Origin: Kiritimatiellia bacterium
Lineage (GTDB): Bacteria; Verrucomicrobiota; Kiritimatiellia; RFP12; JBMNHG01
Direction of reading: 5' to 3'
NCBI GenBank assembly: GCA_050950285.1
Contig: JBMNHG010000011.1
Span: 1 to 64,000, forward strand
DNA: 64,000 nucleotides
A model generated the notes under the pieces. That model was not told the origin of the DNA, did not search any database, and saw only the letters and a list, made by a program, of their open reading frames with translations. How positions within the stretch are numbered: position 1 is the stretch's first letter; every line of letters begins with the position of its first letter. Both the position numbers and the translations under genes were made by a program. Below are positions 12,068 through 64,000 of the stretch, in pieces.

Positions 12068-12135
12068 GATTTTGTCCTTTTTGTTGTGGTTGATCGTTTC
12101 CTGTAGGTCATATTCATTGCTGGCAGCATCCCGCA

Positions 12136-13936: not shown

Positions 13937-14279
13937 ATGACGACGATGAATTACAATCCGTGTGGGAAGCCGGACGCGGGGAACCCGCACGTTAGGCTTG
14001 GTGGGAGAGCCGTCGCATCGGGAAGGCCGAGGCGCGGGGCGCCACTCTGCAAACGAATGGCCGTCGCCGTGTCGTCGCTCGCCATTTTGATGTCCACGGC
14101 TCGTGCCGTGGACACAACGGTATGGACGTGGGATGACGGCGGCAGGGTCGTGGAAGAACCGACGACAGTCACTCAGACCCAAAATCAAGGAATCATTGCC
14201 TGGCTGCCGGTCTGGCAGATTCTGACGGGGGTGTCCGTCAGCACCTCGCGCACTTGGAACGCTTCTCTTTATCCTGTGA
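13937..14279 (+). CDS. Small secreted protein with a group II intron-like leader (one apparent frameshift), ending GTLLFIL*
   Basis: ATG 13937, signal peptide KRMAVAVSSLAILMSTARA. An alternative frame gives GGA ACG CTT CTC TTT ATC CTG TGA (14256-14279), followed directly by AGGAGG and ATG 14293. Confidence 0.6.
13965..14050 (+). ncRNA. Group II intron domain V-VI-like remnant
   Basis: AAGCCGGACGCGGGGAACCCGCACGTTAGGCTT forms a D5-like hairpin with AGC triad, purine-rich loop and AC bulge. It is followed by a GGTGGGAGAG...CCACTCTGC D6-like stem. No RT gene or D1-D4 seen. Confidence 0.7.
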
Positions 14280-14292
14280 AGGAGGATTGGCC

Positions 14293-15506
14293 ATGCGTCT
14301 GTCCGCAGTCAAGTCCGCGATTCTTCGTTGCGGCATTCACGGTTCCGGCGTCTGTTTTTGCCGTGCCGTCGATTTCCGACGTCTCGGTGACGGCCGAAGG
14401 GAACCTTTTCACGATCGCCTACACGCTTTCGGGGGAAGACGCGATCGTCACCGCCGACATTCTGACGAATGGGGTCAGCATCGGCGGCGCGAACCTCGAT
14501 TACCTGTCGGGGGATGTCAACGCGCTCGTCGCGGCAGGCCCGGACAAGGTCGTCAAATGGCGGGCCGATCTCGCCTGGCCGATGCACGAGGTGTCGCCTG
14601 CGTCCGCGAGCGTGGAACTGAAGGCCTTTCCGCCGTCGTCGCCGCCGCAGTACATGGTCGTCAATCTCGATCGGCTCGACACGGCCTCGGCGGTTTCGTA
14701 TTACGAATCGCTCGACCATCTTCCTCGAGGCGGTCTCACGAATGCGATCTACAAGACCTCGCGCATTGTCTTTCGTCGCATCCCTTCGGCCGGCACGACC
14801 TACCGCATGGGATACGACGGCGGCGAGCCATCGGGCGTCGGTTGGCAGAAGAACAATGGCTGTTCGCCTTGCCATGTCATGTTCACGAAGGACTTCTACT
14901 GCGCAATTTACGAATTGACCGGCGCACAGGCCGCGTTTATCACGGATGCCGTCCAGCCGACGCCCGATGTCGCCTCGCATCCGAATGTCGGGCCGAACTT
15001 CAATGCGTACACGGGCGCCAATGGCCTGCTGGACACGTTGCGTTCGCGCACGGGGACGACCGACTTCAATCTGCCGACCTCGGCGCAGTGGGAGTTCGCG
15101 GCTCGTGCGGGCGAGCGCGCCAATTCGCACAACGGCTTTCTGGATTCCAGGCAATGGCGACTACCCGGATCTCCGGGCCATCGCCTGGCACAACAAGAAC
15201 GCAGGAAGCGCATCGCATGAGGTCGGACTGCTTCAGCCGAACAACTACGGGCTTTACGACGTCCAGGGCAATGTCGCGGAGATGTGCCTCGACCTGGTTC
15301 CACCGTCTGGATGGACCGACCGCACGGGGCAGGTCCTGACCGATCCGCAGGGGTATCAGGGCACGGATGCGACGTCCATCGTGCTTCGCGGATCCCACCG
15401 CTGGGCCGGCCCCGACTATCTGCTGGTCTGGGCCATTGCGTCAGAGCAGAAAGATCGAGGCCCGAACAATTTTGTCGGCGTCCGTTTGGTTTTCAACATC
15501 GACTGA
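14293..15506 (+). CDS. Secreted FGE-sulfatase (SUMF1/C-type lectin fold) domain protein, frameshifted
   Basis: LPTSAQWEFAARAG, EVGLLQPNNYGLYDVQGNVAEMCLD, VLRGS..GVRL; frame breaks near 14325 and 15140. Confidence 0.85.
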
Positions 15507-15525
15507 AATAGACAGGGGGAAAAAG

Positions 15526-16737: not shown

Positions 16738-16741
16738 TCAA

Positions 16742-18271: not shown

Positions 18272-18714
18272 CGGCATGTGGTCGCAGTTGTTCACGATAA
18301 CGGGTCCGTGATCGGCAAGCAGAGATCTTCCTCCGGATCAGCGTCTGCTCTCGCAAGCTCGTGCCATCGCAACCGCTCCGCGTCCACACACGGCATCTGC
18401 CCACGCACATGCCGCTCCGGTTTCTGGTCGCCTCGCGTCAACCACCCGTCCCGCCTCCCAGCGGAACGCCGCCTTTTTCAGACGGGTAAGCTTCTGCGAT
18501 GGACACCATCCAAAAACTGGTTCCGAGCGGAATTGCCATTCTCGCGGCGACCCTGCTCTCCCTGTTCGTGCGAGACAGCGTCGCCATGATTCTCGCCTCT
18601 TATCTCGTCGCCATGCTTGCGCCGGTTCTTGCGCTTGTCCGATGCTTGCGCCCCGGACGTCCCCGGTGGCGGATTCTGGCGGCAACGGATCCTACGTCAT
18701 GGAAGACTGACGAG

Positions 18715-23673: not shown

Positions 23674-23683
23674 GGGAAAACCT

Positions 23684-25864
23684 TTACCGAAGAATGAAGC
23701 AGGTGCCGACGTCCGGCTCGACCGTCACCAGCGGACGGAAGGCGGGATCGATGCCATCGACGAGATACGCTGCCGCCCACGTCGTGTCCCTGCCGCGGAT
23801 GTCCCCATCCGCCGCATAATCCAGCCAGCACTTCCCCGTCGAGTTCGTGATCGACTTTTGCGCGCGGTAGATGCAGGTCGTCACCTTCTTCGTTGCGGAC
23901 TGGCCGTCGAGGTACGGCGTTTCGAGCGAAGCCGGCGGGACGCCCTTGAACGTCACGTTGGTCAACGCCGGCATGTTGTTGAAAATGGTATGGCCGAGCA
24001 GAGAGAAATTCGGCCCGACAATGATTTCGCCGACACCCTCCATCGAGCCGAAACTGCCCGAATAAATGCCAGTGTCTTTGTTGAAATGAAAGGCCAGCGA
24101 ATCGAACCCGCTCAGATCGAGCTTGCCGACATTGTGGCAGCCTTGAAACGGCCCGTAGGTCGTGCCGTCAAGGTACCCGCCGCTCATCGCGGGATCAAAC
24201 ACGATGTTGGTCAACGTGGCGCAGTCGAGAAACGCCGCGTTGAGCCAGTTGCAACTCAGCCTCTTAAGATCGGGGCCGAAGACGACGGACGTGATTGGCA
24301 CACCATAAAACACGCCGCGCTCGATCGACGAGATGCTGTAAAGACGGAGATCCTTCTGCCCCGTCGTCTGCGGAACCCCTTGGAACGCATAGTCCCCGAC
24401 AACCTTTACGGAGTCTGGAAGGAACGGGGTCACTTCAGCGAGGTTGGTACACATGCTGAAAGCGTATCCCCCGATCGTATGAAGCCAGGATTCCGGCAAG
24501 ACGAGCCTGCCGACGTAACCCGCCGCAGAGGTCGGTTCGATGTAATCGACGCGCGTCTTGCCGTTTGCATACCCAAAGGCAGGCGACACATTGACAAAGG
24601 CGAGCCAGTTCCCGTTGGTGTCGGTGACCGATGTCGAGAAATCGAGCTCCGACACCGTGGACGGATGCGAAACCCAGGCGCCGACCGTCAACGCCTTGAT
24701 GCCGTTCAACGAGGCGTTGAATTTCCACCCCTGCCGCGTGCTTTCGACGGTGGTTCCGTCGTAAACCCAATCGCCGAGCTCGCCGCCGCTGTCGCTCATG
24801 TGAACCAGGAAAAGGTTTTTTGAATAGGCGTCGGGCACCAGCGCGGAATCCCAATGGGAATCGAGGGCGTTGATCTCGCCGTTCTCGCAATACTGCGCCC
24901 AATCGTCCTTGTACGCTTCGGGAACGACCGTGTAAAGATCGTAAAGCGAGGTTTTCGTCGTGTAATTGTAGATCCGGTACAGCGACGTCCCCGTGATGGC
25001 GGGCGGCCCCGCCGTGAATTCAATGACATCCAGACTGTCCATGCTGTGGAGAAAAGAGTCCGAAATATAGGTTAGCGACGAGGAAAGGATGAGCTTTTTA
25101 ATGTCGCCCTTGTAATCGTAGAAGGGTCGGGAACCGAGACTGGTGAAACCGGAAAAGTCGATCGTTCCCGTCAACTTGGAACAATAGGCGAAAACACTTT
25201 CGCCGCTGATCGCGCCTTCGGACATGGCCGGATCGAAATTGACCGTGGTCAACTCCTTGCAGGAACCGAAGCAACCTCTCTCATAGTTGCCCTGCAGCGT
25301 CTTGAGTGCGCTGCCAAACGTCACGTCGGTAATGGACGAGTCGTAAAAGCAGGCTTGCGACAGGGTCACGGCGCCGCGCAAAACCAACGACTGCCGCGCT
25401 TTCACGGAATGAAATGCGCCGGCGCCAAGCGTCGTCACCGAATCGGGAAGGAAGTTGACGACATTCGTCAGATTGACGCACCCGCCAAATGCGCCCTCGC
25501 CAATCGAAGTCAAGCCGGTTGCCGGAAGCACAAGCTCGCGGAGATTCATTCCCGTTGTCGTGGTTACCGATTTTGGCCTCCAGTTGTTGGTCGTCTTGCC
25601 GAACAGGGCTCCCAACGAATCGATTGTGAAGGATGTCCCTGCTGCGTTCGTGACCGGCTTGGAAAAATCAAGCGTCGAAAATTCATCCGGACAGCCGACG
25701 CAAGGCCCGACCGTGAGGTCGGTGGCGGTGGCGGTGACATTCGTAAACGTCCAGACGCCGTCGGTCATGGTGTCGGCGTCCGGGTCGAAGAACCAGTTCG
25801 CCGCCGTGGCGGCGGTCGCGCCGAAAAGCATCAGCGAAACAAAACCCAGCAGTTTCTTTTTCAT
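23684..25864 (-). CDS. Secreted leucine-rich repeat (BspA/LRR_5-like) surface protein
   Basis: Signal peptide, repeats such as LTSIGEGAFGGCVNLTNV and LHTIGGYAFSMCTNL, two homologous halves; ends GTCFILR*. Confidence 0.85.
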   Translation of the reverse strand: MKKKLLGFVSLMLFGATAATAANWFFDPDADTMTDGVWTFTNVTATATDLTVGPCVGCPDEFSTLDFSKPVTNAAGTSFTIDSLGALFGKTTNNWRPKSVTTTTGMNLRELVLPATGLTSIGEGAFGGCVNLTNVVNFLPDSVTTLGAGAFHSVKARQSLVLRGAVTLSQACFYDSSITDVTFGSALKTLQGNYERGCFGSCKELTTVNFDPAMSEGAISGESVFAYCSKLTGTIDFSGFTSLGSRPFYDYKGDIKKLILSSSLTYISDSFLHSMDSLDVIEFTAGPPAITGTSLYRIYNYTTKTSLYDLYTVVPEAYKDDWAQYCENGEINALDSHWDSALVPDAYSKNLFLVHMSDSGGELGDWVYDGTTVESTRQGWKFNASLNGIKALTVGAWVSHPSTVSELDFSTSVTDTNGNWLAFVNVSPAFGYANGKTRVDYIEPTSAAGYVGRLVLPESWLHTIGGYAFSMCTNLAEVTPFLPDSVKVVGDYAFQGVPQTTGQKDLRLYSISSIERGVFYGVPITSVVFGPDLKRLSCNWLNAAFLDCATLTNIVFDPAMSGGYLDGTTYGPFQGCHNVGKLDLSGFDSLAFHFNKDTGIYSGSFGSMEGVGEIIVGPNFSLLGHTIFNNMPALTNVTFKGVPPASLETPYLDGQSATKKVTTCIYRAQKSITNSTGKCWLDYAADGDIRGRDTTWAAAYLVDGIDPAFRPLVTVEPDVGTCFILR

Positions 25865-26079
25865 TTTTCTTCTCCGTGGTAAAGGTGCGGACCGGCGAAA
25901 ACTCCATGTGAACGCACGATCGCCCGTTTACACTTCACTATACTACCATACCCTTGGGGAATTGAAAGTTAAGAGTTTGCAAGGGGAATGTGGGTAATCG
26001 GTTACTCGTAGGGGACAGGCCCCGAAAAGCACCAAAAAAAGTACGGGATTTAGGCTGAACGTAAGCTTGCCAAGCTAGA

Positions 26080-26241
26080 TTCGTGTTTGAAAACATGAAA
26101 AACGAGCCAATATTCGTGTTTGAAAACACTAAAAAGTGTGCAGGACAAAATCTGTCGCTTGACGGCAAAAGTGACTTTTGCTAGGCTGTTCGTGTTTTGA
26201 AACATTAAAAACAAGTCGTATTTAGTGTTTACAAACACGAA
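26080..26241 (+). promoter_or_regulatory. Sigma70 promoter flanked by two pairs of 20 bp palindromic operators
   Basis: TTGACG (26159)-17 bp-TAGGCT (26182) with an extended TG. TTMGTGTTTNNAAACAYKAA boxes at 26080, 26113, 26189 and 26222. Confidence 0.8.
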
Positions 26242-26251
26242 AGGTCAACGT

Positions 26252-27463
26252 ATGGACGACTCTGAAATTCTTTCCCTTTTGAATGCCTCGGATCGGCTGA
26301 TCCGTTCCGTTGCCATGACGTTCCGTCGCTACCTCTGTTCTCGGATCGACTGGAACGACCGGCTCATCTGCATCAAGGGGCCGAAAGGAACCGGCAAGAC
26401 GACGCTCATCCTCCAGCATATCCGGGAAACGTTCGGGACGGGCGGCAACAAAGCGATCTATGTCGCCCTCGACCACATCTGGTTTGCAACGCACGATGCG
26501 TTGGAGGCCATCGAATACTTCCACTCCCACGGATTCACGCACCTCTTTCTCGACGAAGTCCATCATTTCCCGAACTGGGCCAGCCTGATCAAAACGATTT
26601 CCGACTTTTATCCCGACCTGTTCGTCGTTTACAGCGGATCGTCCCTCCTGAAGCTCAGCGAGTCGCGAGCGGATCTTTCGCGCCGGCAGGCCGTCTATTC
26701 GCTCAAGGGGCTTTCCTTCCGGGAGTTCCTGTCTTTTGAACAAGGCATCGAGGTGCCCGTCCTTCCTTTGGAGGACGTTCTTTCCGACCATCGAAGCCTG
26801 GCCGAAGGCATTGTGAGTTCCGTCAAGATTCTTCCGCTCTTCGCCCAATACCTCGCCTCGGGGTACTATCCGTTCTATCGCTCCGTGTCGAGCCAGTTCA
26901 AAGACCGGCTTGCCGAGGTCGTGAACACGGTTCTTGACGTGGACTTCCCGGCGGTCGAGGACGTGACACCTTCAACCATCCGAAAGGCGAAGAAAATGCT
27001 GGTGATTCTCGCCAAGAGCTGTCCCCAGCAGCCGAACATGTCGGCGCTCTACCGGGAGCTGGGAACCGACCGGAACCTCGGCCTCAAGATCCTGGACGCG
27101 CTTCAGCGGGCGGAACTGCTTCTCCTCCTTGAATCGGGCGCCGCAAAACTCAAGCGCATGTCGAAGCCGGAGAAAATCTTTCCGGGGGACACGAACCTGA
27201 TGCATGCGCTCGTTCCCGCGCCGGATGTCGGGGCGCTTCGCGAGACCTTTTTCGCCAATCAGCTTCGTGCCGGCGGCCACGATGTTCTCGCGCCGGACAA
27301 AGGCGACTTCCTGGTCGATGGCAAGTTTCTCTTCGAGATCGGCGGGAGCCAAAAGGGCTTTTCACAAGTCAAGGACATCCCGGATTCCTATATCGCGAGC
27401 GACGGGATCGAACTGGGGTTCGGCAACAAGATTCCGCTTTGGCTCTTCGGATGCTTGTATTAG
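26252..27463 (+). CDS. AAA_14/DUF4143-type ATPase with a C-terminal nuclease-like motif
   Basis: Walker A GPKGTGKT, Walker B LFLDEVH, SGSS, GYYP, RETFF, GDFLVD..FEIGG, KIPLWLFG. Confidence 0.9.
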   Translation: MDDSEILSLLNASDRLIRSVAMTFRRYLCSRIDWNDRLICIKGPKGTGKTTLILQHIRETFGTGGNKAIYVALDHIWFATHDALEAIEYFHSHGFTHLFLDEVHHFPNWASLIKTISDFYPDLFVVYSGSSLLKLSESRADLSRRQAVYSLKGLSFREFLSFEQGIEVPVLPLEDVLSDHRSLAEGIVSSVKILPLFAQYLASGYYPFYRSVSSQFKDRLAEVVNTVLDVDFPAVEDVTPSTIRKAKKMLVILAKSCPQQPNMSALYRELGTDRNLGLKILDALQRAELLLLLESGAAKLKRMSKPEKIFPGDTNLMHALVPAPDVGALRETFFANQLRAGGHDVLAPDKGDFLVDGKFLFEIGGSQKGFSQVKDIPDSYIASDGIELGFGNKIPLWLFGCLY

Positions 27464-27498
27464 GCGCACAGGAGACAGCCCCCCCAAATCGTATTGCC

Positions 27499-28050
27499 TC
27501 ACTTCCGGTTTTTCCTGCGGGCGGCTTGCTGGGCTTTCCTGGCCTTTTTCGCCTTTTCGCGTTTCTTCTTTTCGGCCGAGCCTGCACCTGCCCGGGAACC
27601 GGGGTCGCGCGGTTCGTATCCGCCGTCGATGCGCTCGCGAATCAGGCGGTAATGCCCTTTGATCCGCTCTACGTAGCCGGGATCCTCGATGAGAACTTCG
27701 CGGCATAATTCCAGCGCTCCGGACGACAGTTCGCTTTGCTCGCCAAGGGGATCCAGGGACGGGCCTTTGCACTGGTCGACCTCTTCCGGGCTGGGATCCC
27801 AGCGCATCCATTTTTTGTAGAACTCGCGTGGCTCCCAGCCCCAGCTTATCGTGGCGATCTGGGTTTTCCGCCCTTTCTGCATCACGGTGAAAATCACGCG
27901 CCGGCAGTCGCACCCTTCTTCGGTACAGTACTGTTCGATGAAGGCGTATTCGCCCGGCGGAAGCCCGTGCTGGGGCGCAAGCAGCGTGATGCTTCGCGTC
28001 TCGTTGATCGCGAGCGTGGGAAAATATCGGTAGAAAGGGTAAAAAGGCAT
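27499..28050 (-). CDS. Hypothetical protein with a YC...GCDCRRV putative metal-binding motif and basic tail
   Basis: 183 aa ORF with a good RBS, a Cys cluster and a KKKREKAKKARK..RRKNRK tail. Confidence 0.7.
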   Translation of the reverse strand: MPFYPFYRYFPTLAINETRSITLLAPQHGLPPGEYAFIEQYCTEEGCDCRRVIFTVMQKGRKTQIATISWGWEPREFYKKWMRWDPSPEEVDQCKGPSLDPLGEQSELSSGALELCREVLIEDPGYVERIKGHYRLIRERIDGGYEPRDPGSRAGAGSAEKKKREKAKKARKAQQAARRKNRK

Positions 28051-28112
28051 GGTTCTCGTTCTCCTCTTTTCATTGACATAATTTGCACGGATTGCGAAGA
28101 AAATGCAAGCGT

Positions 28113-29277
28113 TTACGAGCTGGCGTATTCGCGGGCCTCAAGCACGCGCATGGATTCGTCGTCGGCGGAAAGATACGCGAGCGAAAAGGTCTCGCCGCCC
28201 GACGGGACGGACAGGACGACGTGCGCGCCCGCGTAGGCGGGTTCGGGGACGTCGTGGCAGGGTCGAGACGGCGCCATGAAGGTCGGGCAGATCGACCGCG
28301 CTCCGGGATGAAGCGCGCGGTCGGCGAGGCGCTCGATCGTGTCGGCGCTGTTCTGGCGATGGTTCCAGACGCAGTTCACCCACGCCCGGGGACGCAACGC
28401 CCGGACGAGCTTTTCGGGCATCGAGAAATAGCCGTGGTGGTTGATCTTCGCAACGGAGACGGGCGGCGCCACGTCGGCGAGACGGTCTTCGATTTCAAAG
28501 CGCTCGACGCCTTCCGGCATCTGCGCCTTGTCCGAGAAATCGCCCGCCGTGTAGAAACTGAACGCGCCGTAGCGGACGATCATCCCGAGGCTCATCCCGT
28601 TTTCGTTGATCCACTGCCTGCCGGAAAAACCGGGCTGGCAGTCGGGATAGTCCTCGTAGAGGTTGGTGATCGCGCCCGTCCTCTCGTCGGCCATGCGCCC
28701 GTTGGCGCACAGGTTGAAAATCGAAAACCCCTCCGCCCCGCCATGCAGCATCCGCACCTGGTCGCGACGGCCTTCGACGAACTTCTCGACGACGAGCCCG
28801 TCGCGCTCGACGAGCGCGTCGTAAAGCGCGCGCATGGCGTCGAGCGAACCATCGCGGTCATAATCGGAAATCCGGCACGGATCGTCGCAGTCCGGCCACG
28901 CGCGGTCGAACGCCCGCTGGAAGCGGAGCGTTTGCGCCGCGACCGGAAAGCCGAGCGCGTGGTCGGCGTGGTAGTGGGAGAGCATCAGGATGTCGACCCG
29001 GGTCTTGTCCGCCGCGGGATTGACCCGGGTCACATAACGCGCGATCCAGTCGCCGGCGTGGCGCGACGCATCCGGCAGGATCGGCGCCGGCTCGCGGCCG
29101 GTGGTGTCGATGGCGCCGCAGTCGAGGAGCATCGTCGTGCCGTCCGGGAAAATCCAGAACATCGACTCCCCGACGCCGGTGTAGATGAGGTGGATCTGCA
29201 ATTCGCCCTTTTCCCACCCCGCGCCACGTCGAGGCGGGCGGGATCTTCGGAGGTTCCTTTCGCAGACCAAACTTCAT
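28113..29277 (-). CDS. MBL-fold metallohydrolase (ComEC/Rec2-like)
   Basis: PDGTTMLLDCG, SHYHADH, NENGMS, TAGD, KINHHG; start region appears frameshifted. Confidence 0.8.
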
Positions 29278-29299
29278 TTTTGATGATGATCGACAAAGT

Positions 29300-30268
29300 T
29301 TACTGCGGCTTCGGAACGCCCTTGGGGAAGGCATACCGGATGACCTCGGGCGGGAGCAGGTCGAACGGCACGTCCTGCAACTGCTCGGCGGGAATGTCCT
29401 TGGGCGCCAGCGAAGCAGGCGGCGCGAGCTTCTTCCAGTACTGCGGATCCGCCGCCAGCGCCTTCTCCACCTCGACGAAACGCCTCGAAGTAGCGCTTGC
29501 CGAAATCGCGCTGAGCCTCCGTCGTGAAATGGATGCCGTCCGGCTGCAAGGTGTACTCTTCCTTCGACGGGACGAACCGCCCCGGGCCGTACAGGTACTC
29601 GCAGGTCAGGGTCTGGTTGTGTGGAAATGATTTTGCCGAACCAACCCGATGCGTTCTTCTGGGCGAGTCCGCCCGACGATGAGCGGAACGCCCTCGGCGT
29701 CCAATTCCGTGCGCAGGCGCGAAACGAGCAGCGGGAAGCGCACCTGGTAGAGGTAGCCGCCGCGACGCATGCAGTCCGACTCGCCCTGATGCCAGAGGAT
29801 CGCCGCCAGCGTACCCTGCTCCATCGCCTTCTTCGTCCGCTCAGACGCAGTCGTCGTAGGGATGCCAGTCGGTCTTGCCCTTGCGCATCGACTTGCCCGG
29901 CTCCCACACCGCGAGAGGCGAGGCCGCCGACGGCGCAGGGGACGACGCCGACCGTGATCGTCGGGTCGCTCTCGGCCAGCGCCTCGGCAAACGTCTTGCC
30001 CGGGCCGACGCCCGGAATCGTTGACGTCGAAATGAATGGGGTCGACGCACGGCACCCACCCCGCCCGCCCGGTTCATCATCAGCACGCGCGGATGCGGCC
30101 TGGCGCTCTCGGCGTCGGGCGTCCCGCGCCCCGCCATGTTGCTTTGGCCCGGCCAGCACGACGATCTTGAACTTGTCCTTCGAGGGCGGCGCGGCGTCCG
30201 CCTTCCACGGCCGGCGCCAACGCGCCGACGGCGAGCAGCAGGACGGCGATTGTCTTGGTCGTCTTCAT
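29300..30268 (-). CDS. Sialate O-acetylesterase (SASA/CE6-like), multiply frameshifted
   Basis: GQSNMAGRG, GVGPGKTFA, VGVVPCAVGG, ILWHQGESD and DGIHF found across frames. Confidence 0.75.
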
Positions 30269-30270
30269 GT

Positions 30271-31514
30271 TCACTTCTCCAGCATGATGTTGCGGATCGA
30301 ATCGATCTCCTCCTGCTTGACGCCGATCTTGAGCAGGTACTCGACGACGCGCTCGGGGACCGTGGCGCCGTCCTCAGGGGCGAACGTCCTCGAAAAGCTC
30401 GACGGCCTTCCGGCTGTAGCGGTAGCGGGGCAGGTTGACGTTGAACGACGGCAGCTCGTAGTCGTCGTAGAAATACCGCTCGTCGCGCCCGATCACGCCG
30501 CTGATGAGGAAGGCGAGCGTGCCCGTGCGGTCCGACCCGACGGCGCAGTTGATGTACACCGGATAGTTTTCCGCATCCGCCAGGAACGTGAAAATCTTCC
30601 GCAGCTCGGGCAGGTTCGGTTGGTAGTACATGTGATACGGGATGATCGGGAAGAAGACGTGGCGAATGCCAAGCGTCGCGAGATCCGTTTCGCCCCATTG
30701 CCGGCAGCGCGTCAAAAACTCCTCCTCGTTGCGCAGGTCGAGTTCCCGAACGAACGCCGAGCTTGTCCGACATAGAGCTCTTCGAGCGTCTCCCGGCTCG
30801 CCCGGGCCCAACTCGCCTGTCCGCGGTAGAGCATCCCCTGGCGGACGCGGACGCCCTCCGCGTTCACGCCGCCGCCGAGGTCGCGCATGTTCCAGGACGG
30901 CGCGCCGATCATGCGCGGCGGCGTGTCGGTGGTCGTGAACGACCGGACGTCCGAAACCGACTTCGCGCCGTCCGCATCCGTCGCGCTCACGCGCCAGTGG
31001 TATGTTTTGCCGAGCTTGAGGAAGGCGGGGCGCATCGCCGAAACCGGCTTGTTGGAGACGATCCTCTCGACGATCGGATTTTGCGAAATCCGGCGTCTCC
31101 GAGAACTCGACCACGACGCTCGTGAGCGCGTCGTCCGACGTCCATTGGAACGGCTTGTACTCGCGCTCCTCCTGTTCCGCGCGCTTCATGAGCTCGGCGG
31201 TCCAGTCGTTGTTCATGTAGAAGTTGAAGCGATCCTGCCAGGGCTTCACCTTGGTCGCCTTGTCGCGCCCCGCCTGCACCCAGGCCTCATAGGCGGCGTT
31301 CTGCTTGTCGCGCGCCTCGATCTCCTCTTTCGTCAGCTCCGGACGCGGCGGCTTCACGCCGCGTTTCTCGAAGTTGGCCAGAAACCTCCTTCACGCACGG
31401 GGAATGCAAGTCGTACGTCGCGCCGTCTTCCGGTGCGACGAGCGTGATGGACGCCCCCCATGCCGCGACGCGAAACGCCGCGACGGCACAGGCAAGAACA
31501 AGATGGCGCTTCAT
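30271..31514 (-). CDS. Secreted tyrosine/inositol phosphatase-like protein (CX5R), multiply frameshifted
   Basis: NMRDLGG, VRQGMLYRG, ELDLR, YPVYINCAVGSDRTGTL, DYEL. Confidence 0.8.
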
Positions 31515-31516
31515 TT

Positions 31517-32629
31517 TCACCTCACCACCACGAAACACTGTGCCGACGAGCTTGTCCTTCAATCAGCAGAAGGCGGTTCTCAAGCGGCGTCCCCGCCGGC
31601 ACCGCTGCCGCCGAAAACGTCGAGTCTTTCATGTTAAGCACCCCGTTCTCGGCATACGGAGCCCACTCGTTCGCATACTTGCGGCGGATGTAGGTCGTGA
31701 CCTTTTGCGCCGTGCCGGCATACGTGAGGTCAAGCGACGCAGGCGGCTTGCCGCGAAAACAGACATTCGTCAGCGAGGCGTTGTTTTCAAATGTCCTGTC
31801 GTTTCCAATATTCTGGATTGCCGTCGATAACCGGGAACACAACCGTTTCAACATTCACGCCACGAAACGTACGATCAGCAAGCGACACCACGCCGTTCAG
31901 AACAAGCGGATCTGCCAGTGTAATCGAGCAATCAAAGACGCACGATGCGATGCTCACGTTGGAACATGCAGCGTCGAATACGATGTTCGTGAGCGTCGTC
32001 ACGCCGTTTAACATTTGATACTTGTGGCCGCGGCTTTTCAAACTCCTCGAGATCGGGACCAAACGTCATGGAGGTTATCTTGGTTCCCAAGAAGATCGTA
32101 TCCGTTTGCATGCCCACGACCCCTCTCAGGAACAAATCCCCCGCAATCGGCGAATTGTAAAAGGCGGCCGGAGAAACCGACGTCACCGAATCAGGCAGAA
32201 AGGGAACAACGTTCGTCAGCGACGTACACCAACCGAATGCGCATTGAGCAATGGACGTCAGATTCGTTTCCGGCAGCTTCAGCGAACCGACATATTCACC
32301 GCCGGCGGATCTGCTTTTCACCGAGGTTATGGTGCATCTGTCATATTTGTCGTCTGCATACGCAAACTTCGTGTCGAGCCCAACGATGGCATAGACCGTG
32401 TTGCTAGCGTCCAAAACCGGCCTTGGCGAAGTCCAATTCGGAAAACGACCGTCGGCCAATTCCCGCAAGGCCCGACCGTGAGGTCGGTGGCGGTGGCGGT
32501 GACATTCGTAAACGTCCAGACGCCGTCGGTCATGGTCCCTTCGACCGGGTCGAAGAACCAGTCCGCCGCCGTGGCGGCCGTCGCGCCGAAAAGCATCAGC
32601 GAAACAAAACCCAGCAGTTTCTTTTTCAT
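31517..32629 (-). CDS. Shorter LRR surface-protein paralog of 23684-25864, multiply frameshifted
   Basis: Near-identical signal peptide and first about 50 codons; LTSIAQCAFGWCTSLTNVVPFLPDSV; C-terminus reconstructs as GTV(F)VVVR*. Confidence 0.75.
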
Positions 32630-32739
32630 TTTTCTTCTCCGTGGAAAGGTACGGACCGGCGAAAACTCCATGTGAACGCACGACCGCCCGTTTACACTTC
32701 ACCATACTTGCCATACCCTTGGGGAATTTGAAAGTTAAG

Positions 32740-34756
32740 CCGAAGTTCCAGCGGCTCTTTCATGCCCGAAACGGCCATATTTTCTTGATTTAGCGGCATT
32801 CCGGCACCCCTAAGGCAGCAAAATCCGTTCCATTTGCGCCCATGTAATTGTTAATAACTTTTTTGACGAAACACCATTTTTACGCTTGCATGAGACTGAA
32901 AGGTCTGCTAAATTGAGCCCATGTACATTGACATCGTGCCGAACCGCAAATCCCCGCCCGCAATCCTGCTGCGCGAGAGCTGCCGCGAGGCGGGCGCACC
33001 GTCAAGCGCACGCTTGCCAACCTGTCGATGCTGCCGCCCGAGGCGGTGGCGGCGCTGCGCGCCGCGCTCAAGGGCGAGCATCTTGTGGAGGCCGACAGCC
33101 TTTTCGAGATCGAGCGATCCCTGCCATGCGGCCACGTCAGGGCCGTCCGCACGGCAATGAGCCGGCTCGGCATGCGGGATCTGGTGTCGTCCAAGCCCTG
33201 CCCGGAGCGCGACATCGTGCTGGCGATGATAGCCCAGCGCATAATAGAGCCGGGCTCGAAGCTGGAGACGGTCTCCCTGTTCGGGGACTCCACGCTCGCG
33301 CAGGAGTTCGGCGTGCAGGACGTGGACGAGAACGACCTTTATGCGGCGATGGACTGGCTCGCGGCCCGCCAGCCCTTCATCGAGCGCAAGCTGGCCGGGC
33401 GGCACCTTGCCGAGGGGGCGACAGTCCTGTACGACGTATCGAGCAGCTCCTACTACGGCAAGCAATGCCCCCTGGCAAAGCGCGGATACAACCGCGACGG
33501 CCTCAAGCTGCCCGGCATCGTCTACGGGCTTATGACCGATACCGACGGCAGGCCGGTCGCGGTGCGGGTGTATCCCGGCGACACCGCCGACCCGGTGACG
33601 GTGCCGGACCAGATCGACCGGCTGCGCGGGGGCTTCGGCATAGCGCGGTTCGTCTTCGTGGGTGACCGCGGCATGCTGACGAACACGCAGATCGACCGCC
33701 TGCGGCAAGCAGGAGGGCTGCGGCTGGATATCCTGCCTGCGAAGCTCGGACATCCGCAGGCTGCTGGAGACACGCGATCCCTCCGGTGCGCCGCTGTTCA
33801 CGCAGGGCAACCTGGCCGAGATCATCCATCCCGACTTCCCCGGCGAGCGGCTGGTGGCCTGCTACAACCCGGTGCTGGCGATGGACCGCGCCCGCATGCG
33901 CGGCGAGCTGCTGGAGTCCACCGAGAAGGATCTCGTCAAGCTGCGCGACCATGTGGGGCGCCGGAGGAGGAAACCCCTGACGGCAGCCGGGATCGGCGTC
34001 AGGGCGGGACGCGTGATCAACCGCTACAAGGTCGCCAAGCACTTCAGGCTGGACATCGCCGACAACCACTTCGGCTGGGAGCGCGACACGGAATCCATCG
34101 CCCGCGAGGCCGCCTGGACGGCATCTACGTCGTGCGCACCAGCGAGACGCCCGAGTCGCTTTCCGCAGAGGACGCGGTGCGCGCCTACAAGAGCCTGGGC
34201 GACGTCGAGCAGGCCTTCAGGACCTTCAAGGGCGTCGATCTGCTCGTCCGCCCGATCTACCACCGCCTGGAGGACCGCGTGCGCGCGCACGTGCTGCTGT
34301 GCATGCTCGCCTATTACGTGGAATGGCACATGCGCCAGGCCCTGGCCCCGCTGCTCTACGCCGACGAGGAACTGGAAGCCGCCCGCGCCAGCCGCGATCC
34401 CGTCGCCAAGGCGCAGCCCTCGGAAAACCTCAAGCGCAAGCGCGCCCGGAAACGCACGCAGGACGGACTGCGGCTCCGGCGCTGGGACGGGCTGCTTGGC
34501 GCGCTATCGACACAGGTGCGCAACACATGCTGTTTCGGAGAAGGCAGAACCGCCGTGCGCTTTACCCGCGACACGATGCCCAACGCCTTCCAGGCCAAAG
34601 CCTTCCGACTGCTCGAGGCGGACCACGCCTGCTGGCGGAACAACAAGGGGCGTTTCCATGTAAGCGGAACGGGAAAATGGCGCCAGAAAGCGCGTAGAAT
34701 GCTTGCCTGCAAGGGTTTGCGAATGAGCAGGCTGTTGGAAATCGCTGGAACTTCGG
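32740..34756 (+). mobile_element. IS1634-family insertion sequence
   Basis: 14 bp TIRs CCGAAGTTCCAGCG (32740-32753) and CGCTGGAACTTCGG (34743-34756); 6 bp TSD GTTAAG on both sides. Confidence 0.93.
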
Positions 34757-45399: not shown

Positions 45400-47935
45400 T
45401 TATCGGACGATGATCACGGACCCTCCGGGCGCGAGGTAGCGGATGATGACAATGCCCGATCCGCCCGCGCCACCGGGCGAGTGATTGTTGCCGGACATAC
45501 CGCCGGCGCCGCCGCCGCCGCCCGTGCCAGGAAGGCCGACGCGACCGACGAGGTTGCTGTAACATCCGCCACTGCCGCCGCCGCCGAGGCCGCCTGCGGC
45601 GCTCGGAGAGCCCCAATTGCGAGATCCGCCTCCGCCGCCGCCGGCATAATAGGTGGGCGTGCCGGAAATCGCGGACACCAGCCCGTCGCCGCCCGCGCCG
45701 CCGTTTCGGGAGTCCCACGCGACGCTTTCGCCGTCTTCGCCCGCGCCGCCGCCGCCAGCCGCCCGCAATGTCCTGGTAGCTGACGAAAGGCGCACTGCCG
45801 CCATCGTGGCCTTGTCCGGCGGTGCCGCTTCCTGCGGCGCCCGTTGTATTGCTCCAGCGGCTTCCGCCGCCGCCCGAGCCGCCGGAAAGCGCTGGATTCC
45901 CTTGGAAGCCACCCCCGCCGCCCCCTTGGGCCACCCAGAGGCCGAAGGACGAGCTGGCGCCTTTCCCGCCGCAACTTTCGACTCCGCCCGCACCGCCCGC
46001 GCCGACGACGACCGGGGTCGTACCCAGCTTGGCGACGACGGAGTTCGTGACAAAGCCACCGGCTCCGCCACCGCCGCCACCGGTCGCCCCGCCGCCTCCG
46101 CCACCACCGACAACGAGAAATTCGACGTCGCCGCGGTTCGACACCACGAAGTCGCCGCTGTGGGTGAACGTGTGGATGATGTAGCCGTTTTTCCGGCTCA
46201 CCGTTCCGCCGGTCGCGACAACCTGTCCTTTGGGCAGCGCGTAGCGCACGATCACGATGCCGGAGCCACCGGCACCGCCGGGGTAGGGCGTATTGCCGCT
46301 TTGGCCGCCTCCGCCTCCGCCTCCGCCCGTGTTGGGTGTTGCATCGACGCCGGCGAAAGCGCCGCTGCCGCCTTGACCGCCGCCGCCGAGGCCGCCAGCA
46401 CCGCCGCTGTTGGCGCCATCGCGCCTGCCGCCTCCTCCGCCGCCGGCAAAGTGGAAGGTGGAAAAATCGACGCCAAGTCCATACAGGTCCATCTCGTAGC
46501 CGATGCCCCCGTCTCCGCCTTTGTCCGTGGCGTCATTTCCACAGCCGCCGCCTCCGCCGCCGCCACCACCGGCCGTGTAATTTGCCACGGTGCTGTTTCT
46601 GCCGCCGTCGTGGCCTTGCCCGGGAATTCCGGTGCCGCCCAGATGCGCTTCATTGGCAAAGCCTCCTCCTCCTCCGCCCGATCCGCCGTTGCGCCCCCTG
46701 GCGCGGATGTTGCCGCCTGCGCCGCCGCCCGAAGCCTGAATGACGCCAAAGGAAGAGTCTCCCCCGTTTCCGCCATTGGGGTTGCTTGAACTTGGCGTTC
46801 CGCCGCCGCCGACGACGATGGCGTTCGTACCGCCGGCGATGTAGTCGGACAAAAACAGCACGCCGCCGCCACCGCCGCCGCCGCCCGAAGCATCGCCGCC
46901 CGCGCCGCCGCCGCCGACGACGAGGACATCGACCTTGCCGTAGTTCGAGACGACAAACTCTCCGTTGTTCGTAAACGTGTGGATGCGATACCCATTGATT
47001 TCCTCCACGATGCCGCCCGTGGCCTCGACGAAGCCGGTTGGAGGGGGGAGGGGATAGCGAACCAGGACGACGCCCGAGCCACCGGCACCGCCGGGGTAGG
47101 GCGTATTGCCGCTTTGGCCGCCTCCGCCTCCGCCTCCGCCCGTGTTCGGTTCCCCCGAGGCGCCAGGATTGGCGCCACCGCCGCCGTTTCCGCCGCCGCC
47201 GTTTCCGCCAAGTCCGAAAAGCGTTGCGCCATCGCGCTTGCCTCCGCCTCCGCCTCCGCCGAAGTAGAGCACGGGGCCTCCAAAGTCAAGCGCATAGCCT
47301 CCGCCGCCGTTGCCGCCCTTCGTGGTGCCGCTTTCGCCACGGCCGCCGCCGCCGCCACCGCCACCGCCCGTTTGTTGGCCGGCTACGGTGTTGTTTGTTC
47401 CTCCGTCATAGCCCTGGCCGGGAGTTCCGGCGCCGCCTGGATGCGCTTCTCCACCAAAGCCTCCTCCTCCGCCGCCTGATCCGCCGTCGCCCCCCTTGTT
47501 GCGGACGTTGCCGCCCTTGCCGCCGCCAATGGCCGTCCAGGAGCCGAACGTTGAATCCGCTCCATTGGATGATCCAGCCGCCCCGCCGGCACCGACGGTG
47601 ACGGTTGTGCTGCCCGGATCGAGCGTGAGGCTTTTGAAGAGAACGCCGCCGCCGCCGCCACCGCCGCCGGCACCGCCGCCGCCGCCACCGCCGCCGCCCA
47701 CGATCAGAACCTCGACATCGCCGCCGGAGATCATTTCAAACGTGCCGTCGCTTGTGAACGTGTGGACGCGGTAGCCATTGATTTCGCTGACTGTGCCACC
47801 CGTGGCCTGCACCCAGTCCGCCCGGACGGGCAGGGCGCACACCCCGAGAAAGGCCAATGCCCAGAACGCGAGTTTCACCCCGCTGAAACAGTCGATCGAT
47901 CTACCGTTGCCCAACAGTCGTTTCATCGCGTTCAT
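45400..47935 (-). CDS. Secreted protein with three glycine-rich domains (frameshift near 45770)
   Basis: Three units ATGG..NGY.IHTFT..G.F..VLVVGGGG...GGAGGSG.V.VRY; RBS AAGGAGG; ends GSVIIVR*. Confidence 0.85.
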
Positions 47936-48944: not shown

Positions 48945-48985
48945 TTCCTATTTCTGCAAACGGTGTTCAACATGTCAACCATCGA

Positions 48986-50941: not shown

Positions 50942-50952
50942 GGCCTTCCCCG

Positions 50953-54864: not shown

Positions 54865-54865
54865 T

Positions 54866-55241: not shown

Positions 55242-55252
55242 GGCCCCGATCC

Positions 55253-57424
55253 CTATCGGATGATCACGATCGTCGGAGCGTGCGTCTTCATCCAGAGTTC
55301 CTTGCCGTCGTCGGAGAGGTGCACGGTGGCGCTCTGCGGCGCGATCGCCGCGTTCCAGGACGCAAGCAACGCGTCCGAAATGTCAAGTTTCTTGCCTGTC
55401 GAGACAAGCGGGACGTCGCCGCCGCCCGCCTTGTTGAAAGCCTTTGCGTCAATCTCGAGCTGCGTGTCGTCGTCAAACTGGACGCTGCTGTCCCCCCCGG
55501 TCATCTGGAGAGGCGCCTCGAGCCAGCCGGCGGCCGGAACCTCGAAGCGGAGGATCGCGCCGTTCTGGAACGTGGAATTGTACGGGCTGGGCGTGACGAG
55601 CTTTGGCGCCGCGCCGGCGAAGACAAAGCGTGTCCGGCCCGCGACCTCCGCCGCGGGGTTGTTCCAGACCGCGCGAAGTGGCCCCGCGAGGTTGAACGTG
55701 CCGTTCGAGACGACGACCGCGTTGTCGAAGCCGGTGATGGTCAAGAAGAACGGCCATGTCAGTGTCGCGCCGTCACCGACATGAATGACGTTCTCGTTGC
55801 CGTTCGTATGCGAGCCAAGGACGAGCGATCTCGTGGGATGGACACCCGTCAGCGTGGATCCCGCGCCCTCGATGCGCAGCTCGTTGCCGATGCCGCGCAC
55901 GATCGTCGTCCCGTCCGGGGCGTAGCCCCATTGGGATTCGCTATAGGCCTCCGTGAGATAGAGAGAACCATTGACTTCGACCTGCGCGCCGTCCAGGACC
56001 TCGAAACGGTTGGAGCAGGACCCCCCCTGTCCGATGTTGATGGCATAGGAGCCGCCGCCGAACTTCGCGGTCGTCCCCGCGCCGGAAACGGACAGGACAT
56101 TGCCGAAATAGGGAGCGATGGTGCCCACGATCGTCGTTCCGTTCGTCGCGTAGAAAGTCGAGCCGCCGAGGATCTCGACCCGGTTGGAGTAGCACTGCCC
56201 GCCGTGCTGCGCCACACGCTGCTTGAAGTCCGTATGCTGGTTGCCGACAAGGACTGCCCACGCATCGACCGTCGAACCATGATCCACCGTGACGGTGTTC
56301 CATGCGGACACGTAGGATACAATCCTCGCCGCGTCAGAGAGGGCGCCCTTCACCTCGCCGCCGCACGAAAGCCCCTTCAGCTTTGCAAACGCCCCGTGAT
56401 CGACCCGAAGGCGGTTGAAGGAGCCGCGCCGACCCACCGCCGTCGGAACATCGGTGTCGCTGCTGTCGTTCCGGATTGACGACCCCGTGCCTGTCACGAC
56501 CAGTTCATTCCCGTTGGAGTGGTAGTCCACGTTTTGGAAGATCCCGCCGTAGCCGATCGCCGTTTGCCGTGGCAAGACGAGCGAAGCGCCATTCTCGACG
56601 ATCAGCCGGTTGCCACCGTAGTTGCCGCCGTAGCCGAAGCGAAAGTTGCCGTTTGTCGTGGCCGCAGGGACTGGCTCGACGACGGTTCCCGCACCGGAGA
56701 TCGTCAGGACGTCGCCGCACCCGCCTTCGGATACGTTCCACAGATTTCCGCCGAGGCTAAAGCCGCATGACGACGCGTCCGTCGCCGCATGGTAACGCAG
56801 CCGCGAACCGCCCGAAATCTCGTTCGTCGAATTGAAGCCGCCGAACATGAAGTGGACTCCCTCGGCCTCCGCACCGTCGAGCAGACGAAACCGCACACCA
56901 AGCTTGTCTGGCGCCATAATGCGGTTGACGTAGGAGCCGACAAAGCGCGTCCCGGAACCCGTGACAGTCAGCGTCATGCCGGGGTGATTGCCGTTATCGG
57001 CGACAACGTTATTCGTCGTCGTGCCGCTGACAAACTGCACCGTCCCGCCGCCCGTGAAGGTCGCCGACGTTCCCAGGTTGCGCCAGTACTGTGATCCCGC
57101 CCAATTCGCCGTCAGGACATGGCCGTCCAGGTCGAAGGTGACGTTGTTGTTCAGGTAGTTGGACTTGATCGGGCCAGGCGGAACGTCCGTGCTGTTGCCA
57201 TCGGTGAGCGGCTGTTTGACCGTGGCGTCGGCGGAGAGCGAAACGGTGCAGTCGTTGGTGAACACCATCGTGGAGGTCGTGATGTCGCCGTCCCAGTTGG
57301 CGGCGTCGTTGATGTCTCCGGACGCGCCGCCGGTCCAGACGGCGGCGGAAGCGGACAAGGCCATCGCGAAGGCGAGTGCGACGGCAAACGGAAAGACGCA
57401 GGAACGATGAACAAGTAGATTCAT
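55253..57424 (-). CDS. Secreted beta-helix (autotransporter passenger-like) protein with no beta-barrel
   Basis: Signal peptide, WTGG...AANW, repeated N.L.V.G.GS / IG.GG..N turns; ends APTIVIIR*. Confidence 0.75.
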   Translation of the reverse strand: MNLLVHRSCVFPFAVALAFAMALSASAAVWTGGASGDINDAANWDGDITTSTMVFTNDCTVSLSADATVKQPLTDGNSTDVPPGPIKSNYLNNNVTFDLDGHVLTANWAGSQYWRNLGTSATFTGGGTVQFVSGTTTNNVVADNGNHPGMTLTVTGSGTRFVGSYVNRIMAPDKLGVRFRLLDGAEAEGVHFMFGGFNSTNEISGGSRLRYHAATDASSCGFSLGGNLWNVSEGGCGDVLTISGAGTVVEPVPAATTNGNFRFGYGGNYGGNRLIVENGASLVLPRQTAIGYGGIFQNVDYHSNGNELVVTGTGSSIRNDSSDTDVPTAVGRRGSFNRLRVDHGAFAKLKGLSCGGEVKGALSDAARIVSYVSAWNTVTVDHGSTVDAWAVLVGNQHTDFKQRVAQHGGQCYSNRVEILGGSTFYATNGTTIVGTIAPYFGNVLSVSGAGTTAKFGGGSYAINIGQGGSCSNRFEVLDGAQVEVNGSLYLTEAYSESQWGYAPDGTTIVRGIGNELRIEGAGSTLTGVHPTRSLVLGSHTNGNENVIHVGDGATLTWPFFLTITGFDNAVVVSNGTFNLAGPLRAVWNNPAAEVAGRTRFVFAGAAPKLVTPSPYNSTFQNGAILRFEVPAAGWLEAPLQMTGGDSSVQFDDDTQLEIDAKAFNKAGGGDVPLVSTGKKLDISDALLASWNAAIAPQSATVHLSDDGKELWMKTHAPTIVIIR

Positions 57425-57534
57425 GGCGATTTCGTTGGGTTGGGGGTTGGTTGTGAATCGGGAAAGAGCCTCTTCCATTGTATGCCTATTTTTATCAAAC
57501 CAACGAATTTGTCAAGTCGGCGAGAATTTTATAG

Positions 57535-57677
57535 TACTAACCCGGCCACAAATAGCGCTGCGCACGGGGATTCAGGCATGGGGAGCTGGAATTTGGAGTT
57601 GGGAAAGGGGCACGGACATTCCCGTCCGTGTCAAGGGTTGGAAAATCCGTGCAGTATGAATTGTGGCCGAGTTCGTA
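57535..57677. mobile_element. Second, intergenic copy of the MITE
   Basis: TACTAACCCGGCCACAA ... TTGTGGCCGAGTTCGTA; the body is closely similar to 23512-23660. Confidence 0.85.
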
Positions 57678-57680
57678 TTG

Positions 57681-61598: not shown

Positions 61599-61621
61599 CG
61601 CCTGTGATCCCGTTGTCGACG

Positions 61622-64000
61622 TCAACGAATGATCAGGAGCGTCGCCGGCGCCGAGAGCGCAAACCTCATCGACGTGTCGGTTGCCCTCAGCGAAACGGAA
61701 AAATGGTTCGCCAAGTCCGGATCGACAACCGACGCCCGGAACAACGCCTTGGACGCCGCATCCGTGGAGGCATACGCGAAACACGTCCGCTCCTGCGCAG
61801 TCGCGTTGTCGGCGACCATCGCGAGCGGATCGCCTTCGAGCGCGAAGGCGCCGATGCCGGAGAACGCCGCCGCCCATTCGCCGCCTTCGGACTCGACGGT
61901 CAGATCGCCGCCGCCGAAATTGGCCGTGCCCGCAATCCGCGCGCCGTCCTTCAGGACGATCCGCCTCACGCCGCTCAAGTCGGCGTTGTCGAAGACGTTC
62001 GTTCCGCCGGCGACCACCAGCGTGCCGTCGCCCGTGATCGCGCCGGAAAACACCGCGTCGGGATCGACGCCGTTGAGCGTGAGAACGGAAAAACCGCTCA
62101 TGGCGATCCCGCCGGCGCCATCCAGCCCGCCGACCGTTTCGGCCGCATGGGCCATCGTGTAGTCGGCGGCGGGGCCCAGTTCCAGCACGCGGTCGTCGCG
62201 GAACGCATCAAAGGATTCCACGGCGGCGACGGCGGAAAGATCCACGGCTTTCTTGTAGAAGAACGTGTGCCCCATGTAAACGTTGCCGTTCCAGCTTCCA
62301 TAGAGGTCGGCCGAATCGATCGGATGGTACGTCGCGCCGTCGAACGACACGTCGAGCGTCCACTTGGTCACGCAACGCTTGAGCCCTTGCACGTTGTCGC
62401 CGCAGAACAGACGATACTGGTCGAAATCGACCGGCCCGCCCAGCTCGATCACGAAGGCGTACCCGTTCGCCACCGAAGCGGCGTCCAAGCCGCCCCAGGT
62501 GGCCATCGCACCTCCGACCGCCTTGTTGGCGTCGTACCCGTTCCACTCCTCGCTCGGCATTCGCGCGGTGGCGTCGATGAGCCCTGCGGCCGGCGTCTTC
62601 AGACCGTCCGCCCGGTAGGCGACCGTTCCGGCGGGCCACGGAACCTTCTCGCCGTTCTTGTTGATTTCAAGCTCGCTCAACTGAAGCATAACCCCCTCGC
62701 CCGCGCCCGAATTGCCCCCGCTGATTTCCGTCACCCGGATGCGGATGTACTGGAAAGCCCCCGTCGAGTCGAACGCGCCGGAGATGCGGTTGCCCTCGAA
62801 GGAGGGCAGCGTTTCGGCGCCGGGGAGCGGCCCCTGGACGTCGGCGTCGTGGTCGCGCGGCGGCCAACCGTACAAGGCCTGGAAATCGAACGTCTCGTAG
62901 TTCACGTTGACGACTTCCCACGTGATGCCGTCCAGGCTCGATTCGAGCGCCCATTTCCCGGCCCAGTAGGCGGGGTTGGGCGCATTGGAAAACGACGGCA
63001 CGCGGACGCCGAAGTAGTCAAACGTCGTCATGCCGTCGAGGGTCATGGTGAGGGCCGGGCTGTCGCGGACGCCGGTGCCGAACTCGTTCTGGATGTTGAC
63101 CTGGCAGTAGTTGTTCGTGGCGCCGTCGAGCAGGTTCCGGTACGTCGTGATTTCATGCGAATAGCCGTAGGCGTTCTGATCGCTGAGCGACCCGCCGGTG
63201 TAGTTCGTGGTCATGTAGCCATCGTAAAACCCATGCAGCACCGGCGGCACCGCGATGAACTCCCCGTCGAGCGAAAATTCGAGCTCGGCGGTTTGCGAAA
63301 CCTTTGTACTGGTTCCTGAAATCGGCGCATAGCGGATGAAGCGCGCCACCGTCGGCGCGGTTTCGGGATAGTCCACCGTCGCCCCGGCCCAATCGACGGT
63401 GCCATGCAAGGCGTTCGCGACCGGGTTTTCAAACCGATCGACGAGCGTCGGCATCCGGCGGCAGCGGATGTTCCCGCGCATGTCGAGGCTGAGCGGCGCC
63501 GCCGCGCTGTCGAAGGCGAGCGGCATCGCCGCCGGGTTCTCCGCCGTGCCGGCAAGCGTCCACGTGCGCGCGGCGCCCGTGTTGTAAAGGTAGAACGCGG
63601 TCGAGTTCGAGCGTGGCGCCGCTGGCGATCGACACCGAGGCGGACGCCGGGAAGACGGGAATCGGGTTCAGGCAGTTGACGGGATCCATGCGAGGGCCGT
63701 AGCCCCAAGTGCCATCGACCATGTCTCGTCCATAGCCTGCCGTGCAGAACGTCTCCTGGTCGTCAAAGCGGTACCAGTCAATACCCTCCGCGCCGTCCAC
63801 GCCCACGTCCACGCTGAACGCATACGGCGTGCGACCGGAGGAAATCGTCGCGGCGGCGATGCGGTAGCCGTCGAAGACGACGTTCGCCCCCATGTCGATC
63901 GTGACATAGACCGGCCAGTAGTTCACCGACCAGTCCGTCGCTTCGGAATGCCCCACGGTCAGGATTTTCGAAGCGTCCGTGTTGTCGGAGTTGACGGCGG
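61622..64000 (-). CDS. Partial large surface protein with discoidin/F5-8-like domains (start beyond window; frameshifts near 63500-63600)
   Basis: W.L..S.DG.TW/Y motifs, FQYIRIRVT..MLQLSEL, FSGAITGDGTLV; ends PATLLIIR*. Confidence 0.65.

Follow-up and report, generated by a model that had tools for sequence, protein, structure and literature searches.

Most surface-type proteins in the genome of a Kiritimatiellia bacterium (assembly GCA_050950285.1) end in one of two ways: either in a tail of seven residues, typically Gly-Thr followed by four hydrophobic residues and an arginine directly before the stop codon, or in an unnamed C-terminal domain of ~80 residues, here called the FYR domain. The tail was first noticed in the window analysed here, a stretch of 64,000 nucleotides of contig JBMNHG010000011.1 (C11:1-64000), in a preliminary description that proposed a lineage-specific export or surface-anchoring signal. 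We extend that observation by finding that tail and FYR domain are interchangeable as C-terminal ends, both within one orthologous family and across genomes. In the reading that we prefer, with a rough probability of 0.45, the tail marks proteins for export out of the periplasm, and its reader, which probably recognises it as a β-strand, is probably a type II secretion system (T2SS).

The source genome (4.05 Mb, 99% complete) is prone to frameshifts, and its genes were called with a hexamer-based procedure (n = 2605). The pattern given in the preliminary description, [GPA][TSLFM][hydrophobic]{4}[RKL]$, was counted at gene ends and its expectation was derived from internal positions. It closed 69 of the 2605 calls compared with 1.6 expected (the same count under two gene-calling models) and 69 of 4649 looser open reading frames (1.9 expected). 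The tail is fixed to the C-terminus, its R/K-ending form occurring 67 times at the stop and 0–5 times at each of the offsets 1–7. In a profile of 63 seeds, G was present in 54 and T in 54, followed by four residues out of L, I, V, F, and M and then by R (59) or K (4), while in relatives the terminal residue could also be Q, H, N, or E. As the codons of the tail are synonymous-diverse, selection acts on the protein. Signal peptides, assigned by a crude hydrophobicity rule instead of SignalP, were present in 55 of the 65 tail proteins of at least 100 aa vs. 553 of the 2225 others (p = 4e−23); the 10 misses were mostly frameshift-split genes without a start, and one was a six-transmembrane membrane protein matched by chance. 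The proteome scan thus bore out the link to secreted proteins that had been proposed from the window, while the contrast drawn there with cytoplasmic proteins had to be corrected, the sharper one being with the signal-peptide glycosidases and esterases of the window (18715, 48986, 50953, 57681), from which the tail is absent.

Tail proteins are long (median 1079 aa) and varied in their folds. Pfam was run on 38 of them in all, and in the 37 of the main scan beta-helix, DUF1565, Gly_rich_2, LamG, F5/8, PKD, PATR, and LRR families as well as two C25 peptidases were recognized, 8 proteins had no match, and no family reached over the tail. Neither did the NCBIfam scan of 17 tail proteins return a model of it, so that the existing database model that might have described the motif was found in neither collection for the proteins scanned. 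The domain before the tail ends 4–12 residues upstream, and in one case it is a choice-of-anchor Q domain that immediately precedes the tail (residues 1407–1456 of 1468; NCBIfam). Among the 130 non-membrane proteins of at least 300 aa with an extracellular-type composition in the source genome, 68 end in the tail and 23 in the FYR domain (by regular expression), and the two ends together account for most of these surface-type proteins. Pieces of RHS proteins and of TpsA, genes split by frameshifts, 2 FYR proteins that the expression had missed, and one trimeric autotransporter made up most of the remaining 39, with the RHS proteins being a genuine exception. The strict tail was found in just 2 of the 1131 proteins that scored low for this composition.

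A side observation concerns the RHS proteins: a signal-peptide protein of ~210 aa with the tail-like end D[GA]A[VI][IF][LI]LR at the stop exists in four copies (C2:213195, C8:804871, C10:19313, and C6:56027), each immediately upstream of an RHS-type gene that is large or split and has no tag, and is possibly a tail-bearing adaptor.

The exchange between the two ends was followed in the C25 family, i.e., the homologs of the tail-bearing C25 peptidase g471. The closest 43 of 71 proteins were combined with 40 of 46 loci (4 partial and 2 cut loci were omitted), resulting in 81 rows past the length filter (74 distinct), for which 7 regular-expression labels were corrected by hand. With the corrected labels, the tail closes 28 rows and the FYR domain 50 (for the most part within a ~135-residue module), with 3 rows ending in something else. 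The family tree requires 6 changes of the end, at least 4 of them forced by well-supported branches (7 changes, 4–5 forced, with raw labels). The Gly-Thr of the tail often aligns with the GTPxxWL at the beginning of the long module, an arrangement suggestive of repeated truncation. In the source genome, the tail was present on 0 of the 29 proteins matching the FYR profile. Across genomes, the median number of FYR matches was 7 in 25 tail-rich genomes compared with 30 in 27 tail-free ones (2.1 vs. 8.3 per Mb; counted with a profile to which the source genome and its relatives had contributed), and the family-level Spearman correlation between tail and FYR was −0.52 over 34 families; family f11 has almost neither tails nor FYR domains. 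Given that the tail trades places with a domain of ~80 residues in relatives, it is likely a minimal address label for outer-membrane crossing.

The FYR domain, which closes with F[YF][RK][VI], terminates ~25–30 further large surface-type proteins of the source genome and had no Pfam or NCBIfam match in the proteins scanned. Atlas look-alikes sit on unrelated Verrucomicrobiota proteins, and one aligned part carries the number PF28696 and is undescribed. Its profile matched 19,330 representatives at E ≤ 0.001; in the best 149 of these, the domain is C-terminal in each of the 24 proteins that have it once, and of the 125 with more than one copy, 109 end in it. The structural model of the domain (predicted local distance difference test, pLDDT, 73) has five strands of at least 3 residues, compared with the seven of an FN3 sandwich. 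Its best structure-search match had Z 6.2, FN3 domains were matched with Z 5.0–5.7 (root-mean-square deviation 2.3–3.2), several of these matches stop 17–26 residues short of the target end, and Foldseek gave nothing at E ≤ 0.001. From this model we infer an FN3-like sandwich that would end on strand F and lack strand G.

Two further observations were made on FYR proteins. In many loci (L016, L115–L141) the C25 gene is preceded by a gene that ends in a conserved FYR domain, which in the source genome encodes an SdrD/DUF11/choice-of-anchor A protein. The four internal-FYR proteins of the source genome (C3:25293-41135 and C2:949807) have N-terminal anchor-like sequences and the domain at approximately residues 220–305.

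Within the window, the following proteins were considered (every tail ends directly at the stop codon, which is included in its coordinates):

14057..14279, plus strand: small signal-peptide protein, GTLLFIL at 14256-14279 after removing assembly insertions
23684..25864, minus strand: BspA-type leucine-rich repeat (LRR) protein of 726 aa with a signal peptide, LRR_5 by Pfam, tail GTCFILR at 23684-23707, read in frame
31517..32760, minus strand: short LRR paralog, interrupted by numerous insertions that appear to stem from the assembly, with a likely tail
45400..47935, minus strand: glycine-rich (Gly_rich_2) protein with a signal peptide, tail GSVIIVR at 45400-45423, in frame
55253..57424, minus strand: passenger-like protein of 723 aa without a barrel, with a signal peptide and no Pfam match, tail PTIVIIR at 55253-55276
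61622..64000, minus strand: F5/8 type C (discoidin-like) protein, frameshift-split, tail ATLLIIR at 61622-61645, in frame

The four tails that the preliminary description had read directly (at 23684, 45400, 55253, and 61622) are thus all in frame on the minus strand. By regular expression, 34 of the 37 homologs closest to the LRR protein have the tail (2 of the others are truncated and 1 is a variant), and a tail variant ends 21 of the 22 listed homologs of the passenger-like protein, its own record counted. The Gly_rich_2 gene contains one frameshift near 45780, its start being deduced from the three-frame translation, and the signal peptide of the F5/8 type C protein lies just beyond the window edge (C11:64490). 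In the AlphaFold model of the LRR protein (37 sequences, pLDDT 87.5), the last strand covers residues 711–714 and residues 715–726 are unstructured, so that the tail is an appendage in the model; the last block has a pLDDT of 59 vs. 86–96 in the preceding blocks.

For the two genes that had needed repair, the assembly was compared with contigs of independent runs, which gave 24 gaps over 25890-32493 (three runs) and 5 over 14249-15515; the listed differences are single extra bases, and the broken genes in these regions are therefore probably artefacts. Four independent runs lack one base at each of 14249, 14278, and 14323, and the small protein then ends in GTLLFIL, as the repair in the preliminary description had it. 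The LRR paralog likely carries the tail as well, its homolog P0114 ending in EDKLVGTTVVVR at the stop, and the precise letters proposed for it are putative: one frame gives ...QCFVVVR at the stop and another ...KLVGTVF, and the places near 31517 are not among the gaps itemised.

The surroundings of the small protein offer some details of their own. Downstream of it there is a Shine-Dalgarno sequence followed by a SUMF1-like gene, and a resembling 78-aa signal-peptide peptide elsewhere in the genome (C3:844011-844226), with LDTR repeats and the end VGTTIVVR, also adjoins a SUMF1-like gene. Directly upstream (13965-14050) lies a sequence similar to group II intron domains V–VI (25.8 bits, below the Rfam cut-off of 40), with one similar place elsewhere in the genome.

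In the panel of relatives, the tail was searched at the DNA level as G-T-h4-[RKQHNS]-stop, where Trp was also admitted at the stop and the reversed pattern served as control. Matches were found in 27 of the 31 genomes (source genome counted), up to 55 times per genome, with reversed controls at 0–3, and the pattern was enriched in several further orders of the class. Family f11 had 0 in 12 genomes, and the tail-free genome set stayed near the control level under a looser pattern as well. In 134 genomes from other classes of the phylum there were 0–3 matches, the same as in the control; judged by this pattern, the tail is confined to the class Kiritimatiellia, in line with the lineage-specificity first proposed. 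Counts of 1–3 per genome carry no meaning, since several matches in low-count genomes, including the recurring GTMVLVQ, are out-of-frame chance matches; the neighbourhoods of 20 matches in such genomes had no common gene. The C-terminal tag is real and apparently undescribed: it was nowhere described in the titles and abstract beginnings of the open-access literature searched, and the main text of the Haft preprint (bioRxiv 2023.06.07.544157) has neither "Kiritimatiell" nor "Lentisphaer". Another short hydrophobic end motif, LPWLMLLME at the stop, was seen in a beta-helix protein of one relative (G035, L054:3658-5901).

Among known sorting systems, the C-terminal domain (CTD) of type IX secretion systems (T9SS) is similar in combining a Sec signal peptide with a signal conserved at the C-terminus of unrelated surface proteins, C25 peptidases included. 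T9SS type B domains end in G-x-h-x-h-h-R. The tail differs from it in being seven residues after a short linker, and in a genome that is 99% complete SprA and PorP/SprF were not found, although the SprA control matched nowhere. The PorV model had only a below-cut-off match to a FadL barrel, the C25 proteins scored far below the PorU cut-off, and the CTD models TIGR04183/TIGR04131 had no match in 17 (NCBIfam) or 38 (Pfam) tail proteins. The T9SS export signal is described as the last 22 residues, the final two strands of the CTD (PMC4804311), and the type B CTD as a domain of 70–100 residues in which all five motifs are needed (PMC12618676). PEP-CTERM, GlyGly-CTERM, MYXO-CTERM, and LPXTG are likewise short tags at the C-terminus, repeated on dozens of surface proteins in a genome and often preceded by a Pro-rich linker. 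Such tripartite signals combine three elements (motif, transmembrane helix, and Arg-rich cluster), and the shortest of those with Cys in the Haft preprint has 20 aa (bioRxiv 2023.06.07.544157), whereas the tail consists of 4–5 hydrophobic residues and one polar end residue, without an exosortase that tracks it. Over 68 proteins, the longest stretch of hydrophobic residues among the final 25 had a median of 4, i.e., no transmembrane helix (the single 18-residue run is a chance membrane-protein match), no terminal basic cluster accompanies the one R or K of the 63 seeds, and TIGR02595 had 8 matches in the source genome, 6 above the cut-off and 0 on tail proteins. With the β-signal of the β-barrel assembly machinery (BAM) and with autotransporters the tail shares a predicted C-terminal strand and, in some cargoes, passenger-type PATR repeats, but it comes without a barrel domain, a terminal aromatic residue, or an alternating pattern: no barrel family was found in the 38 proteins (Pfam), and the terminal residue is R/K.

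A dedicated machine, which the preliminary description had suggested and proposed to find by phylogenetic profiling, did not emerge: none of the dedicated candidates tested followed the tail in its distribution, which leaves only class-universal machines. Exosortase is present in 77 of 80 genomes, among them all 7 of the f11 genomes without tails, and was undetected in G116 and G193, two genomes with a few tails. C25 peptidases were not found in the tail-rich G021, G015, and G010, and themselves carry the tail or FYR. The six secretins of the source genome are g182 (with GspD domains), g253, g314, g167, g349, and g810, of which the first three were profiled; g253 was not found in the tail-rich G005, G021, G025, and G350 and was found in most tail-free genomes, while g314 was not found in G021, G015, G350, and G010. 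The unnamed barrels g1564 and g712 (one of them predicted OmpW-like) were each found in 0 of 5 genomes, three of which are tail-rich, in a comparison without a positive-control genome. A second Omp85 is lacking in 4 of the 5 tail-bearing genomes tested, which have one only, and the third Omp85 of the source genome is a TpsB beside its own TpsA. PDZ proteins did not track the tail, with DegP-type ones, like BamA, being present in all genomes tested. Kiritimatiellia, as seen in the source genome and 79 relatives, encode 2–9 secretins each, and these belong to several separate groups of orthologs.

The source genome encodes GspD, GspF, GspG, GspK, and pseudopilins as well as Walker-A ATPase candidates for a T2SS. 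An ortholog of its GspD (g182) was detected in 65 of 65 class genomes and in 0 of 15 genomes of other classes at E < 1e−45, and BamA aside it is the sole secretion channel tested that was found wherever tails are. As it is present with and without tails, the T2SS is named by elimination and not by co-occurrence. According to the proposed mechanism, a tail protein would enter the periplasm by its Sec-type signal peptide and fold there, after which the tail, hydrophobic on both faces and with a free carboxylate end, could add onto the edge of a β-sheet in a putative receptor; the FYR sandwich, if it ends on strand F, could contribute a comparable edge strand at its own terminus. The cargo would then be handed to the class-universal GspD-type T2SS and cross the outer membrane. 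T2SS substrates are similarly Sec-exported folded proteins, and the Fn3 domain of Dickeya PelI/Pel3, which carries a T2SS secretion determinant (PMC7949064), may be compared with the predicted FN3-like FYR domain. More tentatively, the tail may be a portable seven-residue T2SS signal that arose by repeated truncation of a Verrucomicrobiota-wide FN3-like C-terminal export module.

Several points weigh against this reading. Published T2SS signals are composite loop determinants on unrelated substrates and not linear tails (PMC7949064), and a shared linear C-terminal signal is undescribed in the literature consulted. No GspC or GspC-type PDZ protein was identified, there is no positive link of the tail to the T2SS, and GspD is equally present in f11, almost without tails or FYR. 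The FYR domain is also present in other classes, where the GspD ortholog was undetected in the 15 genomes at the threshold above, and its FN3 assignment has Z scores of 5–6 as its sole basis. The genome comparisons are phylogenetically non-independent, and the panel was picked by tail count. Finally, FYR occurs in tandem arrays in 125 of the top 149 representatives and internally in 4 of the 29 proteins of the source genome, both of which suit docking as well as export.

Docking is the theme of an alternative that we regard as doubtful, though one to be taken seriously: tail and FYR would hold proteins on the surface after export by another signal, binding by strand addition to one another, to a scaffold, or to a receptor in the outer membrane. 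The arrays and internal copies of FYR speak for it, as do the adhesin-like cargo (beta-helix, LRR, LamG, F5/8, Gly-rich) and T9SS type B domains, which are reportedly held by PorP-like barrels (PMC9143113). However, no conserved receptor barrel was found, the two unnamed barrels not being detected in the five genomes tested, and a transport step accounts better than optional anchoring for the fact that the two ends cover nearly all surface-type proteins, including proteases. In an unlikely reading, a sortase-type enzyme would cleave the tail or attach a lipid at it, and the tail would be a PEP-CTERM or CAAX-like signal in reduced form. Many tails do follow a Pro-rich linker resembling the start of the PEP-CTERM signals of the source genome, N-x-S/T sequons show a mild enrichment (observed/expected ratio of 1.2, compared with 0.96), and two PorU-like C25 peptidases are present, but the missing transmembrane segment and basic cluster argue against such a site, and neither exosortase nor C25 tracks the tail (CPBP and rhomboid were outside the comparison).

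BamA, a periplasmic chaperone, or a protease could instead read the tail as a folding or quality-control tag, and profiling cannot separate these since BamA and DegP-type PDZ proteins are in all genomes tested; yet the barrels of the source genome end in Phe or Tyr with an alternating pattern, periplasmic enzymes are without the tail, and a degron is not expected to interchange with a folded domain, which makes this quite improbable. That the tail is simply the final strand of a structure, or has come about through paralogy, would agree with the choice-of-anchor Q end common to many cargoes, but its presence on unrelated folds, its unstructured state in the model, and its repeated origin on the C25 tree leave this explanation with hardly any probability and largely refuted.

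Whatever the reader, tail and FYR give a simple rule by which the surface proteome can be predicted in a class that is abundant and mostly uncultured, and they point to a pathway of export or anchoring in Verrucomicrobiota that is as yet uncharacterised. Substrate choice by the T2SS is a long-standing open question because the known signals are conformational, and a seven-residue stand-in for a whole domain makes it testable by a single reporter fusion. Were the export reading true, it would provide a transplantable T2SS signal of a kind for which we found no description, and a function for an unnamed domain in ~19,000 sequence clusters.

The window also contains two features apart from the tail genes. 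Positions 1337-12136 hold a 25-repeat CRISPR array accompanied by cas4-cas1, cas3, and csb-like genes, which on inspection looks type I-G-like. The AT-shifted segment 33028-37591 encodes a transposase, which we take to be IS1634-like, and a DNA cytosine methylase with a neighbouring gene.

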